Assembly: GCF_024700885.2 (NCBI RefSeq)
Contig: NZ_CP117016.1
Length of the DNA stretch: 64,000 bases
Direction: 5' to 3' (one strand)
Source of the DNA: Escherichia coli
GTDB taxonomy: Bacteria > Pseudomonadota > Gammaproteobacteria > Enterobacterales > Enterobacteriaceae
In this document: positions 2,120 to 11,800 of the stretch, in pieces
How positions within the stretch are numbered: position 1 is the first letter of the stretch
How the letters are laid out: each line of letters begins with the position of its first letter
Notes under the pieces: model-generated
What the model was told of the DNA's origin: nothing
What the model saw: the letters and a program-made list of their open reading frames with translations, nothing else
Database searches by the model: none
Position numbers and translations under genes: made by a program

Positions 2120-2836
2120 TCAATACTCCCATGCCTCAAACGCTAACGGCATATTATTTAACAAATCCCGACGCTCACGCCAGTCAGGAATAAACTGATC
2201 CATATGCAACCGGAAGCGAGCATTATGGTGACGTTCCAGAAGATGAACCAGTTCATGCACCAGAATATACTCCAGACACTCCGGCGGCTTCTTAATTAGC
2301 TCCAGATTGAGCCAGATTCGTTTTGTTGTAGTGTTACAGGTGCCCCAAAAGGTTTTCATCTTTTTGATGCCCCAGAATGTTAGGGGAACACCGATTCGGT
2401 CCTGCCATTCAGGTAGAAGCTTAGCCACCTGCTGTTTTAGTTCATGTCGATAAAATTCACTTAACGCCAATGCCTTATTTTCATCACGGGTTCCCGGTTG
2501 AACATAAAGCTGGAGCTTATTATTTCCTGCAACTTTTACTTCGTGACGCCCGTGACGCTCAATCACAAGTAGGCGATATCTTCGGCCCCAAAGATAGTGG
2601 CACTCTCCGCTGACCATTTCCCTCTCTGATTGACGAGGCTGTCTGGCGAAATCCTGCTGCTGTTTTCTGATCCAGCGAAAGCGTGAAGCAACCGCCATAC
2701 GAATCGCCGTCTCCGTCATATGTTCCGGCGCTGAAACGCGGACTTTGCCATCAGGCGGCAGCACGCTGATATGCAGATTCTTAATCGCCTTACGGTTGAC
2801 CAGCAAGTGTAACGAGCCTATTTGCATGATTGGCAT
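2120..2836 (-). CDS. HEXXH zinc metallopeptidase (YgjP/DUF45, M48/WLM-like), translationally coupled to hsdR
   Basis: 238 aa with HELVHLLERHH motif; start ATG shares one nucleotide with the hsdR TGA stop (ATGA overlap at 2836). Confidence 0.75.
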   Translation of the reverse strand: MPIMQIGSLHLLVNRKAIKNLHISVLPPDGKVRVSAPEHMTETAIRMAVASRFRWIRKQQQDFARQPRQSEREMVSGECHYLWGRRYRLLVIERHGRHEVKVAGNNKLQLYVQPGTRDENKALALSEFYRHELKQQVAKLLPEWQDRIGVPLTFWGIKKMKTFWGTCNTTTKRIWLNLELIKKPPECLEYILVHELVHLLERHHNARFRLHMDQFIPDWRERRDLLNNMPLAFEAWEY

Positions 2837-5800
2837 CAGTGATATTCCTTCTGCTGACGGGCAAGCGCTATCACCTCATCAATATCAATATTATAGCTGG
2901 CGGTCTCTTCACGTAATGCGTTGGCAATTTCCCGTTCTTTAAAACGATCGCCAATCCACTCTGCCCTTTTGGTATAGCGAATCGTCGTATCTATGCGGGT
3001 CGCCAGTACCTCGTCGTGGCCGAAGTTATCATAGAAGGCGCGCTTTGCTTGTGTATCCATGGTGGCAGGGTAGCACGCTCCGGCGGTTTGCTCCGGGCGG
3101 ATGACCTGTTTACACAAATCGCGGATACGTTCCAGATACTGCTGATAATTGAGCGCATTTTGTCGGCGAAGGGTAATCAGTTCATCCAGCAGCTGCGACA
3201 TGCGTCCATAGTATTTTGGGTTAACCGGGTTTTCATCCACGATGGTTTTGCGCACGTTGTTTTCGATGGTTTCCGCCATCGCATCCTGATTATTACGGAT
3301 ATCATCCGGCAGGGCGACGGTCGCCGCCAAGCCTTTCTCGACAATCAGTTCAATCAGACTTAACTCTTCAAAATCCATCAGCACTTCGCTACCATCGGCG
3401 CGAACATACATATCCAGTAAATGACGCATAGCGGGTTCAAAGCGCTTCATATCCAGAAGATCGCCGCTGGTCAGCTTAATCTCATAGCGCAGTTTTTCGA
3501 ATTCAGCGACTTCGGCGCGAATGCTCTCTACCTCTTCGGCAGTGTAGCCTGCTTCCGGCATTTCATTGGCGATGCTGGCATAAGCGCGTAGCAGACGGGC
3601 GACGCACTGGTAAAATGTCAGGCGCAGCGCCTCTTTTTCGTTTAACGAAGTCTGATTCTCTCCTGATTCACCGCAAAAATAGTGCTGATAGTCCAGCAGG
3701 CTGCGCGGGGTTTTGACGGGTTCACATAAGCTGCGAACCATCTCCAGCGCGCTGTCGAGATCCAGTTGCGCCTGCTCCAGCCTGTCTTTCAGCAACCCGG
3801 CCACATCGTCCCGATCGTAATCATCAAACGCGCCCGTGGTGTAATCGGTAATCGCTTTATCCAGCGAACGGAACAGATCTTTATAATCGATAATATAGCC
3901 ATACTCTTTATCCTCACCGTCCAGCCGGTTCACCCGACAAATCGCCTGAAACAGCGTATGGTCGGTCATGGTTTTATCAATGTAGAGATAGGTGGCGGAC
4001 GGCGCGTCAAAGCCAGTCAGCAGCTTATCCACCACGATAAGCAGGCGCATTTGCCCCGGCTCTTCAATAAAACGCTGTTTCACTTCCCGCTCGAACTCGG
4101 TAATGCGTGCGGCGGCCTTCTCTTCACTTTGTTCAAAATAGTCAGCCAACATTTTACGATAGGTGGCGTGTTTAGAGAGTTTCTCCGTTAACCCTTCGCC
4201 CGTTTCTTCGCCTTTGATGCTGGCGGCATCGGGGCGATAGCTGGTCACAATCGCTACTTTTCCTGCCAGCTCGGTCTGGCTGAACATCTCGTAAACCTTG
4301 CAGGCTTGATAGATACTGCTGCATACCAGCATGGCGTTGCCGCGCCCGTCCATCAGGCGTGGACGGGTATCCATATCCAGCAAAATGTCGTTAACGATCT
4401 GCTCCAGCCGCGACTTGCTGGAGAGCAGCTTCTGCATTGATCCCCACTTTTGCTTAAGCTGGGTCCTGGCTAAATTCGACAAACCGCGAGTCTTGGCTTC
4501 AAACCAGTCATCGACCTTTTTCTCTGATGTCAGATACTGGTCAATATCGCGTGCCTCGTAGCGCAGATCCAGCACCACACCGTCGGCCACCGCTTCATCA
4601 AATTTATAGGTATGGATATAAGGGCCGAACACCTCAACCGACTTCTTCTTATCTTTCTTCATCAGCGGTGTGCCGGTAAAACCGATAAACAGGGCGTCCG
4701 GCAGAATGGCAGTCATGGCGTTATGCAGCTTGCCGGATTGTGTGCGGTGGCACTCGTCCACAAAAACAAACAGATCGCCTTTGGCGCGGAATGTTTTCGT
4801 CAGGGACTGCTGTAATTCGGTGATAAAGGCGTCGGTAGCCGCATTGTCTTCAGCTTCGCTGCGACGACCAAATTTATGCACCAGCGAGCAAATGAGCCAC
4901 GGGTTAGGATGATTGAGCGTTGCGATAAGATCGTTGCCGCTGGAGGTGCGATAAATATCTTCATTCACGCCCATAAACACGCTTTCGATCTGTTCATCCA
5001 GTTCGGTGCGGTCAGTCACAATCAACACGCGGGAGTTTGGCACATTTTCACGGATCCACTTCGCCAGCCAGACCATCGTCAGGCTTTTACCCGATCCCTG
5101 TGTGTGCCAGATAATACCGCCTTCACGACGGGCAATATGTTGTTTAGCCGCCTCGACGCCGAAGAACTGATTATGGCGGCAGAGTTTTTTCACCCCGACA
5201 TCAAAGGCAATGTAATTATGGACGATATCCAACAGCCTGGATTTGCTACACAGACGACTTAAATGAAAGTCGAGTTTATGTGTATAGTCGCCTGGATTAT
5301 CTTCTTTCCACTCCAGATAGTATTTTTCCGGGGTTTCGATGGTGCCGTAGCGCAGGCCCTGCGTATCGTTGCCCGCCATCACTAACTGCATAGTGGTGAA
5401 GAAATCGCGGATAAAGGTTTTCTTTTGATTATCGAGATTCTGCCGGATGCCTTCGCTGACGTGCACTGACGAACGCTTAAGTTCAATCACGCCCAGCGCA
5501 ATGCCGTTAACGTACAGCACCAGATCCGGGCGCTTGCAGTACTCGCCTTTGACCGTCACCTCATCGGCGATGGCGAAATCATTGGCTTGTGGGTTGGCCC
5601 AGTCAATCAGCCACACGGTTTGGTTCTGCTCGCCTGCGCCTTCTTTGTCTTTCACGCCGTAACGCAGCAGGCGATAGACCTCTTTATTGGCGTAATAGAG
5701 TTTTTTGCCTTCGCCCAGAGCGGCGGCGGAATCCAGTTGCCGCAACGCCCGGGTGATCAACGTATCATTAACGCCGCGCCGTTTTAGCCACGCGCTCAGT

Positions 5801-5931
5801 ATATTAGTGTCGATGTTGCTGTTCCCGGTGTACCCGGTGCGGTGACTCAGATGGCGGTAACCTAAATCTTCAACAAAAAACTGAATCAGACGCTGCTGTG
5901 TGGCGCGTTCGCGCTGGCCCACGGTACTCAA
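2836..5931 (-). CDS. hsdR: Type I restriction enzyme R subunit (HsdR)
   Basis: 1031 aa; SF2 helicase motifs (TQGSGKSLTMVWLA Walker A; FVFVDECHRTQ DEAH-like box; GFTGTP), typical HsdR length and N-terminal nuclease region. Confidence 0.9.
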   Translation of the reverse strand: MSTVGQRERATQQRLIQFFVEDLGYRHLSHRTGYTGNSNIDTNILSAWLKRRGVNDTLITRALRQLDSAAALGEGKKLYYANKEVYRLLRYGVKDKEGAGEQNQTVWLIDWANPQANDFAIADEVTVKGEYCKRPDLVLYVNGIALGVIELKRSSVHVSEGIRQNLDNQKKTFIRDFFTTMQLVMAGNDTQGLRYGTIETPEKYYLEWKEDNPGDYTHKLDFHLSRLCSKSRLLDIVHNYIAFDVGVKKLCRHNQFFGVEAAKQHIARREGGIIWHTQGSGKSLTMVWLAKWIRENVPNSRVLIVTDRTELDEQIESVFMGVNEDIYRTSSGNDLIATLNHPNPWLICSLVHKFGRRSEAEDNAATDAFITELQQSLTKTFRAKGDLFVFVDECHRTQSGKLHNAMTAILPDALFIGFTGTPLMKKDKKKSVEVFGPYIHTYKFDEAVADGVVLDLRYEARDIDQYLTSEKKVDDWFEAKTRGLSNLARTQLKQKWGSMQKLLSSKSRLEQIVNDILLDMDTRPRLMDGRGNAMLVCSSIYQACKVYEMFSQTELAGKVAIVTSYRPDAASIKGEETGEGLTEKLSKHATYRKMLADYFEQSEEKAAARITEFEREVKQRFIEEPGQMRLLIVVDKLLTGFDAPSATYLYIDKTMTDHTLFQAICRVNRLDGEDKEYGYIIDYKDLFRSLDKAITDYTTGAFDDYDRDDVAGLLKDRLEQAQLDLDSALEMVRSLCEPVKTPRSLLDYQHYFCGESGENQTSLNEKEALRLTFYQCVARLLRAYASIANEMPEAGYTAEEVESIRAEVAEFEKLRYEIKLTSGDLLDMKRFEPAMRHLLDMYVRADGSEVLMDFEELSLIELIVEKGLAATVALPDDIRNNQDAMAETIENNVRKTIVDENPVNPKYYGRMSQLLDELITLRRQNALNYQQYLERIRDLCKQVIRPEQTAGACYPATMDTQAKRAFYDNFGHDEVLATRIDTTIRYTKRAEWIGDRFKEREIANALREETASYNIDIDEVIALARQQKEYH

Positions 5932-11455: not shown

Positions 11456-11494
11456 TAAATATCTCGTTTTGCGCGATAATGTGCCGTAAGTCGG

Positions 11495-11800
11495 TTACAG
11501 CAGATCGGTATTCAGACCGGCGGCCTTTAACCGATGGGTTAAGTTACGCATTTTGCTGAATTCGGTACCGAGGCTCTGGTTCAGACCAGTGCCTTCGCAA
11601 AAGGCTTTTGCCGTAATGTGTTCCAGTTTGTCGGCATATTTAATCATTTGCAGGTGCAGCTCGACGGTGTACTGGTTACGAGGCGCACTGGAAAGTGCCT
11701 GCCGGATATGGCGATAAATCTCGTCTTCATTCATATTCATGGCAACCACTGGTATAATAGATAAGTTAGCTAAATTAGCTAAATGTGGTATCAGGTTCAA
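11495..11800 (-). CDS. Hypothetical small protein at the head of the hsd/darTG operon (80-101 aa)
   Basis: ORF immediately upstream of hsdM on the same strand (39-nt spacer); protein-like composition; internal Met (MNMNEDEIYRH...) is an alternative start; no family recognised. Confidence 0.4.
   Translation of the reverse strand: MNLIPHLANLANLSIIPVVAMNMNEDEIYRHIRQALSSAPRNQYTVELHLQMIKYADKLEHITAKAFCEGTGLNQSLGTEFSKMRNLTHRLKAAGLNTDLL

Follow-up and report, generated by a model that had tools for sequence, protein, structure and literature searches.

A seven-gene defence locus of Escherichia coli matching the RptR, type I restriction-modification, DarTG2 and M48-like peptidase island of enteropathogenic E. 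coli

Introduction

What kind of locus is the run of seven minus-strand genes at positions 2120-11800 of a 64,000-nucleotide stretch of Escherichia coli DNA (contig NZ_CP117016.1; the whole stretch is called the window below), in which the three subunit genes of a type I restriction-modification (RM) system stand together with a small open reading frame (ORF), the genes darT and darG and a peptidase gene? A preliminary description of this DNA had seen in it a single operon, formed when a canonical three-gene type I system acquired four passenger genes. We conclude that the locus is almost certainly a copy of RRDM, a defence island made up of RptR, a type I RM system, DarTG2 and an M48-like peptidase, that is, of the RptR-RMS-DarTG2-M48 island of enteropathogenic E. 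coli (EPEC) E2348/69 that was characterised experimentally by Zhang et al. (Nucleic Acids Res 2025, PMC12255303). The seven-gene island is thus a correct rediscovery of an island already known in near-identical form, and is not new. We describe below the evidence for this identification, the promoter and operator of the window copy, the question of a single transcript, and the parts of the locus that are fixed or exchangeable among its relatives.

Results

Gene content and order are those of the EPEC island

We listed the ORFs of window positions 1-16000 and searched their products with the NCBIfam, PADLOC and Pfam profiles (Table 1). The seven minus-strand ORFs are co-oriented, intact and without internal stops, and catalytic motifs are kept in all the enzymes. 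The tight packing of seven co-oriented genes noted at the outset was accordingly borne out by the ORF listing, by the family assignments and by the RefSeq annotation, and profile matches upheld the composition proposed for the locus, namely type I RM, DarTG and a peptidase with an HEXXH motif.

The gene order rptR-hsdM-hsdS-darT-darG-hsdR-M48 on one strand is the same as in the EPEC E2348/69 locus, which we fetched and whose RefSeq protein accessions are exactly those listed in PMC12255303. Protein identity between the window and E2348/69 is 96-100% for every gene but hsdS. Both islands have the same junction types and the same -35, -10 and TAGCTA operator elements, and the promoter hexamers and operator repeats are placed alike in the two. 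Moreover, the RefSeq annotation of copies that are 100% identical to the window locus names the same seven genes (HTH-like protein, subunit M, subunit S, darT, darG, subunit R and M48 family metallopeptidase). The two islands differ in the HsdS protein, in three residues of RptR (N2D, N52S and H67R in the window) and in location, since the window copy sits in a tRNA-Ser(GGA)/ghrA island whereas the EPEC copy is flanked by IS100, IS3 and IS66.

The cloned EPEC island reduces plaquing of phages Trib, Baz, TB34, lambda-vir and T7 by 10^3 to >10^7, and EPEC hsdM mRNA rises more than 15-fold after phage infection (PMC12255303). Anti-phage activity and RptR-dependent repression have been demonstrated for the EPEC allele only; for the window allele they are predicted from its sequence likeness.

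Table 1. Features of the island in the window and its gene junctions
Feature	Position	Strand	Description
-35 hexamer TTGAAC	11795-11800	-	identical to the -35 box required in EPEC (PMC12255303)
-10 element AGCTAATTT	11772-11780	-	14 nt 3' of the -35 hexamer; matches the functional 5' -10 box of EPEC
RptR operator, three 9-bp units	11757-11783	-	TTTAGCTAA 11775-11783, TTTAGCTAA 11766-11774, CTTATCTAT 11757-11765
rptR	11495-11734	-	79-residue repressor, Pfam HTH_73; RefSeq label 'HTH-like domain-containing protein'
hsdM	9017-11455	-	812-residue type I methyltransferase with a C-terminal extension of ~360 residues
hsdS	7683-9017	-	specificity subunit, 444 residues from the annotated ATG; PADLOC Specificity_I, E = 3e-131, full length
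darT	7014-7670	-	DNA ADP-ribosyltransferase toxin (DarT2), DUF4433; NF048013 262.6 bits, cutoff 150
darG	5950-7017	-	macrodomain ADP-ribosylglycohydrolase antitoxin; NF048014 451.1 bits, cutoff 250
hsdR	2836-5931	-	1031-residue restriction/translocase subunit; TTG start (EPEC likewise)
YgjP-like zinc metallopeptidase gene (PGAP label 'M48 family')	2120-2836	-	238 residues; TGATG coupling to hsdR
Upstream stretch travelling with the island	11801-12567		probably non-coding; includes ~700 bp at 11860-12567, upstream of the promoter
Junction rptR/hsdM		-	39-nt spacer
Junction hsdM/hsdS		-	TGATG, 1-nt overlap, annotated ATG at 9017
Junction hsdS/darT		-	12-nt spacer containing AAGGGA
Junction darT/darG		-	ATGA, 4-nt overlap
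Junction darG/hsdR		-	18-nt spacer, AAGGAG before the TTG start
Junction hsdR/peptidase		-	TGATG, 1-nt overlap

All three type I subunits are present and intact, and the NPPF, DECH and D...ELK motifs were found in them. HsdM scored 282.8 bits against TIGR00497 (cutoff 242.75) and matched the PADLOC profile MTase_I PDLC03027 over its full length; motif I lies at residue 188 and NPPF at residue 264, and 793 of the 812 residues are identical to EPEC. The similarity of the protein to the EcoR124 type (E = 1e-64) exceeds that to EcoKI (E = 1e-21), and the protein is about 280 residues longer. The Pfam domains HsdM_N and N6_Mtase together span only residues 10-441; residues ~445-812 (window 9017-10120) gave no significant match in Pfam and are not covered by any HsdM of solved structure. 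A length of 806-814 residues is kept in relatives from Vibrio, Methylomicrobium and Salmonella. HsdR scored 546.2 bits against TIGR00348 (cutoff 284.55), with a full-length PADLOC match, DECH at residue 392, the nuclease motif D...ELK at residues 136-152, and identity to EPEC at 1027 of 1031 residues.

HsdS is the one divergent protein, with 206 identical positions in a global alignment of 508 columns with EPEC HsdS, and the GC content of its gene is 0.394, compared with ~0.52 in the neighbouring genes. This divergence and low GC content are consistent with exchanged target-recognition domains, and a different target sequence would therefore be expected for the window enzyme.

DarT is identical to EPEC DarT at 215 of 218 residues and retains G49 and the catalytic E170, and DarG is identical over all residues (355/355), both copies being RefSeq protein WP_000634203.1; because of these identities to EPEC DarTG2, we assign the window pair to DarTG subfamily 2. 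EPEC DarT ADP-ribosylates single-stranded DNA at TTT/TCT and stalls replication, and DarG reverses the modification (PMC7003065).

The peptidase, identical to that of EPEC at 237 of 238 residues, carries HELVH at residue 194 and matched the Pfam family YgjP-like (PF01863) with E = 1.4e-61, along with weaker SprT-like and WLM matches. Its fold match is limited to the minimal zincin core, and against the Peptidase_M48 profile PF01435 it reached only E = 0.081, so that strict membership of M48 is not indicated.

The promoter and operator upstream of rptR

The small ORF had initially been extended to a TTG at position 11800. This extension crosses the operator, and that TTG is the beginning of the -35 hexamer; the true gene is the shorter rptR of Table 1. 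Its product gave no match in the NCBIfam and PADLOC profile searches, and is identical at 76 of 79 residues both to EPEC RptR and to PDB chain 9R2Z_A, which was deposited as "Transcription factor". The residues predicted to contact DNA (T57-K61) and those of the dimer interface (E25, L69, A72 and L74) are as in EPEC, and the three substitutions fall elsewhere. RptR also matched phrog_30666 (function unknown) over its full length (E = 5.4e-37), and RptR-like proteins therefore occur in phage genomes too.

In EPEC, RptR is a dimeric four-helix repressor (PDB 9R2Z) of the island promoter; the active sigma-70 promoter upstream of rptR consists of -35 TTGAAC and -10 AGCTAATTT, and RptR binds cooperatively to three 9-bp repeats TTTAGCTAA, the core palindrome of which is TAGCTA and which overlap the -10 element (PMC12255303). 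Two repeats suffice for repression (PMC12255303). In the window, TAGCTA hexamers at 11776-11781 and 11767-11772, 9 bp apart and over the -10 element, are followed by TATCTA at 11758-11763, so that at least two TAGCTA-type repeats with the required spacing are present. The EPEC operator has three TTTAGCTAA units and then CTTATCCAT (TATCCA), whereas the window has two TTTAGCTAA units and then CTTATCTAT (TATCTA); the alleles thus differ by the copy number of the 9-bp unit and by one C/T difference, and the -10 box and the 14-nt spacing are retained. Among seven aligned copies, three perfect TTTAGCTAA units were found only in EPEC. As TATCTA is one of four hexamers expected to permit RptR binding (PMC12255303), the window operator probably still offers three RptR sites. 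Over the whole window, TAGCTA was found 8 times against 7.1 expected by chance, and only the pair spaced by 9 bp at the promoter is meaningful.

The best sigma-70 match of this region lies on the opposite strand, at 11730-11758 (+), where TTCATA and TATAAT are separated by 17 nt (10/12, with a TG extension). It is directed away from rptR and lies over the rptR start codon and the third operator unit, and may be a putative divergent or antisense promoter.

An in-frame deletion of 69 nt between two GGTCTGAA repeats was observed in rptR of E. coli O157:H7 F7349 (locus L006, 10897-11061) and in a further copy (locus L007, 10908-11072). It corresponds to window positions 11511-11579, and with residues 52-74 the repressor loses its DNA-recognition helix and dimer interface. 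In these copies the other six genes are intact, as are the promoter and two operator repeats. In an evenly spaced listing of 40 rows from 249 rptR-matching records, 6 of the 40 rows had this pattern, with O157:H7, enterotoxigenic E. coli and bovine strains included, and hence about 15% of carriers would have the deletion. The deletion predicts natural constitutive expression of the island.

A single transcript is favoured by the junctions

With the RefSeq starts, all six junctions are either overlaps of 1-4 nt or spacers of 12-39 nt (Table 1). The 12-nt spacing of hsdS and darT and the overlap of darT with darG were confirmed as first described. An overlap of hsdM and hsdS exists as well, but it amounts to the 7 nt given earlier only if hsdS is started at a GTG at 9023, and to 1 nt from the annotated ATG; the ATGA reported for hsdR and the peptidase gene is actually TGATG.

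We counted promoter- and terminator-like patterns in positions 1900-12100 and compared the counts with those of shuffled sequences. Both counts were at chance level: promoter-like patterns numbered 13, against 11.4 ± 4.0 expected, and terminator-like patterns 14, against 11.6 ± 2.8. In the same scan, no intrinsic-terminator-like site was found at any junction. RNA folds of the three spacer junctions were not significant (z = -1.57, +1.03 and +0.40), no structured RNA or terminator was found 3' of the peptidase gene (z = -0.03), and an Rfam search over 1500-13000 returned no matches. The locus therefore has the layout of a single operon, as had been proposed, with co-oriented genes, short or overlapping junctions and no internal terminators at the junctions. 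Because of these junctions, we infer that the rptR promoter would read through most or all of the seven genes. The overlapping stop and start codons would in addition couple the translation of hsdM with hsdS, of darT with darG and of hsdR with the peptidase gene, fixing the ratios of subunits and of toxin to antitoxin. The only promoter tested in the EPEC island is the one upstream of the first gene, which is repressed by the product of that gene (PMC12255303).

Several points weigh against treating the window locus as a single, EPEC-like regulated defence unit. Given the different HsdS and the two-repeat operator, the window allele may recognise another target sequence than that of EPEC and may be repressed with a different tightness. 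In the sections of PMC12255303 considered, the shares of RM, DarTG and the peptidase in defence are not separated, the transcript assayed is that of hsdM only, and the words operon, co-transcri... and polycistronic do not appear. Furthermore, the minus strand has three weak promoter-like matches (9/12) at 8035-7843, where the 3' part of hsdS is AT-rich and precedes darT.

These matches raise the possibility of several transcription units, in which darTG and/or hsdR and the peptidase gene are driven by internal promoters, located for instance within darG or at the AT-rich 3' end of hsdS. In classical EcoKI and EcoR124I, hsdR is transcribed from a promoter separate from that of hsdMS, and toxin-antitoxin pairs usually autoregulate a promoter of their own (a general statement in PMC12255303). 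However, the internal matches are weak and their total count equals the expectation from shuffles, the 12- and 18-nt spacers leave room for ribosome-binding sites only, and the junctions are without terminators. For the EPEC island, moreover, toxicity resulted when hsdMSR or darTG2 was placed immediately after the island promoter in constructs lacking rptR (PMC12255303), which is consistent with the island promoter driving them. We thus regard separate transcription units as rather unlikely and favour a single transcript from the rptR promoter.

A proposed fixed frame with an exchangeable slot between hsdS and hsdR

The content of the hsdS-hsdR interval varies among relatives of the locus. In Salmonella it holds DarT and a macrodomain protein, with an HTH_73 (RptR) gene upstream. 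Two loci of Vibrio cholerae carry other genes there, the first encoding an SMC/AAA_21 protein and an SLFN_AlbA_2/HATPase_c_4 protein, and the second GmrSD_N, AAA_15/DUF3696, an unknown protein and SLFN_AlbA_2. Fic and SLFN_AlbA_2 proteins are encoded in Methylomicrobium album, the interval is empty in Photorhabdus, and a distant E. coli relative of the hsdR-peptidase pair has two DUF262 genes resembling the TgvAB type IV system of V. cholerae. Zhang et al. also regard this slot as a hotspot (PMC12255303).

In contrast to this exchange of cargo, the join between hsdR and the peptidase gene is constant: in every neighbourhood examined (E. coli, Salmonella, Vibrio, Photorhabdus and Methylomicrobium), the final base of hsdR is also the first base of the peptidase gene, whatever the cargo. 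More than 7700 homologues of the peptidase were found at E <= 1e-10 among the scored candidates, and they stay about 70% identical across Vibrio, Methylomonas, Marinomonas and Photorhabdus. The position of rptR is occupied in V. cholerae by a gene for a 74-residue Xre-type HTH_26 protein (locus L015, 3350-3574), and in M. album (locus L016, 3801-3905) only by an ORF of 34 codons without a Pfam match, with no HTH protein. Type I RM genes are the commonest neighbours of RptR homologues (54/117; PMC12255303). We infer that this type I lineage has a fixed frame of [small repressor/regulator]-hsdM (~810 residues)-hsdS-[cargo]-hsdR-peptidase, in which darTG is exchangeable cargo.

The nature of the slot also bears on the role of DarTG, whose main function might be to stabilise the RM locus or the genomic island by addiction, rather than to act against phages. 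Such a role was proposed when the association of DarTG with type I systems was first noted (PMC5179494), and the island does sit in a tRNA-Ser genomic island rich in insertion sequences. However, earlier work cited in the introduction of PMC12255303 credits both DarTG1 and DarTG2 with robust defence of E. coli against phages, and the other bona fide defence genes that fill the slot in relatives (TgvAB-like and GmrSD-like) argue for a logic of defence cargo. In E. coli strain 1303, furthermore, darT is frameshifted and the locus is kept. An addiction role as the main function is thus quite improbable, and we favour DarTG as defence cargo.

The idea that a canonical three-gene type I system secondarily gained four unrelated passengers (the small ORF, darT, darG and the peptidase gene) agrees with the textbook EcoKI locus, which lacks the small ORF and the peptidase gene, and with darTG, which is clearly inserted relative to cargo-less or differently loaded relatives and swappable across the hsd loci compared, but it is very improbable as a whole, because the 1-nt overlap of the peptidase gene with the hsdR stop codon, exact in all relatives examined from five genera regardless of cargo, and the role of RptR as the island's own repressor mark two of the four as fixed in the type I lineage. 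Only darTG behaves as a passenger.

Distribution, decay and genomic context

Of 5426 complete E. coli genomes, 247 contain the whole locus with a match to at least 80% of the query. Nearly all of these copies are chromosomal, and the main variation among carriers lies within hsdS. One copy of the rptR region was counted as plasmid-borne (NZ_CP194962.1, a 243-kb record). The contexts include the tRNA-Ser/ghrA island of the window, IS100/IS3 in EPEC, contact-dependent inhibition (CDI) genes in O157:H7, fucP, and a dGTPase defence gene. Decay of island genes is occasional: one canine isolate has a truncated hsdR and has lost the peptidase gene. In the copy of strain 1303 (locus L008, 6395-7010) the frameshift of darT is annotated, and darG and the RM genes are intact, which amounts to decay of the toxin.

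In the window, the island lies about 14.7 kb from tRNA-Ser(GGA) (26468-26555), beside ghrA and inside a CP4-44-like element (window 12700-26555) that carries a GTPase gene, the Ag43 gene, DUF932, an antirestriction protein gene at ~22475-22960, a JAB/RadC gene, CbtA/YeeU and DUF4942. The coordinates of this element were mapped from strain MLI114, and the mapping was verified over window 1500-12700 and the tRNA gene only. The type I RM system thus shares its genomic island with an anti-restriction gene.

Homology to six other copies, which have five different right flanks, extends through the stretch upstream of rptR and ends at 12563-12569, the only boundary common to the five flanks. Copies of this stretch contain frame-breaking indels and stops, and no ORF is conserved on either strand. 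Two candidates for an eighth gene were accordingly rejected, both without a PHROG match: the hypothetical ORF annotated by PGAP at 12016-12270 (+), which is probably no gene because the copies have stops and indels of 1, 2, 4 and 16 nt, and an ORF of 66 codons at 11953-12153 (-), which is broken by stops and indels in other strains. The stretch contains a further TAGCTA at 12342-12347, overlapping TATATA. No terminal direct or inverted repeats of at least 8 nt bounding the cassette were found. On the left, position 2021 was considered as a boundary and rejected: it marks a rearrangement in the window and in one other copy (locus L007), and four other copies are homologous further left. The left flank at 2021 is joined to a truncated plus-strand ORF (1803-2198) and an IS600 remnant.

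Discussion

The seven-gene locus may be compared with other type I systems, some of which carry further defence genes. The insertion of darT-darG in type I RM operons was noted in 2016 by Jankevicius et al. (Mol Cell, PMC5179494), with the same general arrangement as here; the flanking regulator and peptidase were not characterised in that work. In V. cholerae, the Vibrio pathogenicity island 2 (VPI-2) contains the TgvAB type IV restriction genes within a type I RM operon (J Bacteriol 2024, PMC11411939), which is likewise a two-gene defence module between hsdS and hsdR; however, its cargo is a modification-dependent nuclease and not a toxin-antitoxin pair.

The hsdRMS genes of EcoKI in K-12 (type IA) share the three-subunit type I chemistry. 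Their order is hsdR-hsdM-hsdS, with separate promoters and without embedded cargo, RptR or the peptidase, and the order M-S-(cargo)-R of the window is thus unlike that of K-12, as first described. In EcoprrI-PrrC, an anticodon nuclease gene is embedded in a type IC hsd operon, so that a latent toxic effector between hsd genes serves as a backup when restriction is countered, as might DarTG here. PrrC, however, is kept inactive because it is physically bound to the RM complex, whereas DarT is neutralised by its own antitoxin DarG, and no interaction between DarT and an RM complex is known.

Because Zhang et al. had already described the island with its repressor, operator and anti-phage activity in 2025, and the link of DarTG to type I systems dates from 2016, the present identification carries little weight as a discovery. 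The analysis corrects the annotation of the window at the start of rptR and supplies the coordinates of the promoter and operator.

The island would work in the following way. HsdM2S methylates the host target, and HsdR2M2S translocates along unmethylated DNA and cuts it. By binding the TAGCTA repeats that cover the -10 element, RptR dimers would hold down the activity of the island promoter, as demonstrated for the EPEC allele, and infection would raise expression, as for hsdM mRNA in EPEC. DarT2 ADP-ribosylates thymidine in single-stranded DNA and blocks replication, and DarG removes the modification and sequesters DarT (PMC12255303). DarTG would serve as a second, abortive layer, so that one repressor would control both first-line restriction and an abortive-infection backup.

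The peptidase appears to be functionally tied to HsdR. Since its gene remains translationally coupled to hsdR in every relative, irrespective of cargo and upstream regulator, the YgjP-like zinc peptidase might be a dedicated post-translational controller that either proteolyses HsdR or cleaves the small repressor encoded at the 5' end of the island upon infection; we offer this suggestion tentatively, and it is on balance unlikely. Cleavage of the repressor would resemble the logic of CapP/CapH or IrrE/DdrO. A role of the peptidase as an RptR-specific partner was considered and is weakened by V. cholerae (HTH_26) and Methylomicrobium (no HTH protein), which keep the hsdR-coupled peptidase. According to the proposal of Zhang et al., de-repression would come about when RptR is degraded or sequestered, with no part assigned to the peptidase gene (PMC12255303). 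In the literature searched, we found no paper on the function of this peptidase or on a link of YgjP/COG1451/DUF45 to type I hsdR. If it is HsdR that is cleaved, the peptidase would provide type I systems of this lineage with built-in restriction alleviation, and thereby protect the host from self-restriction.

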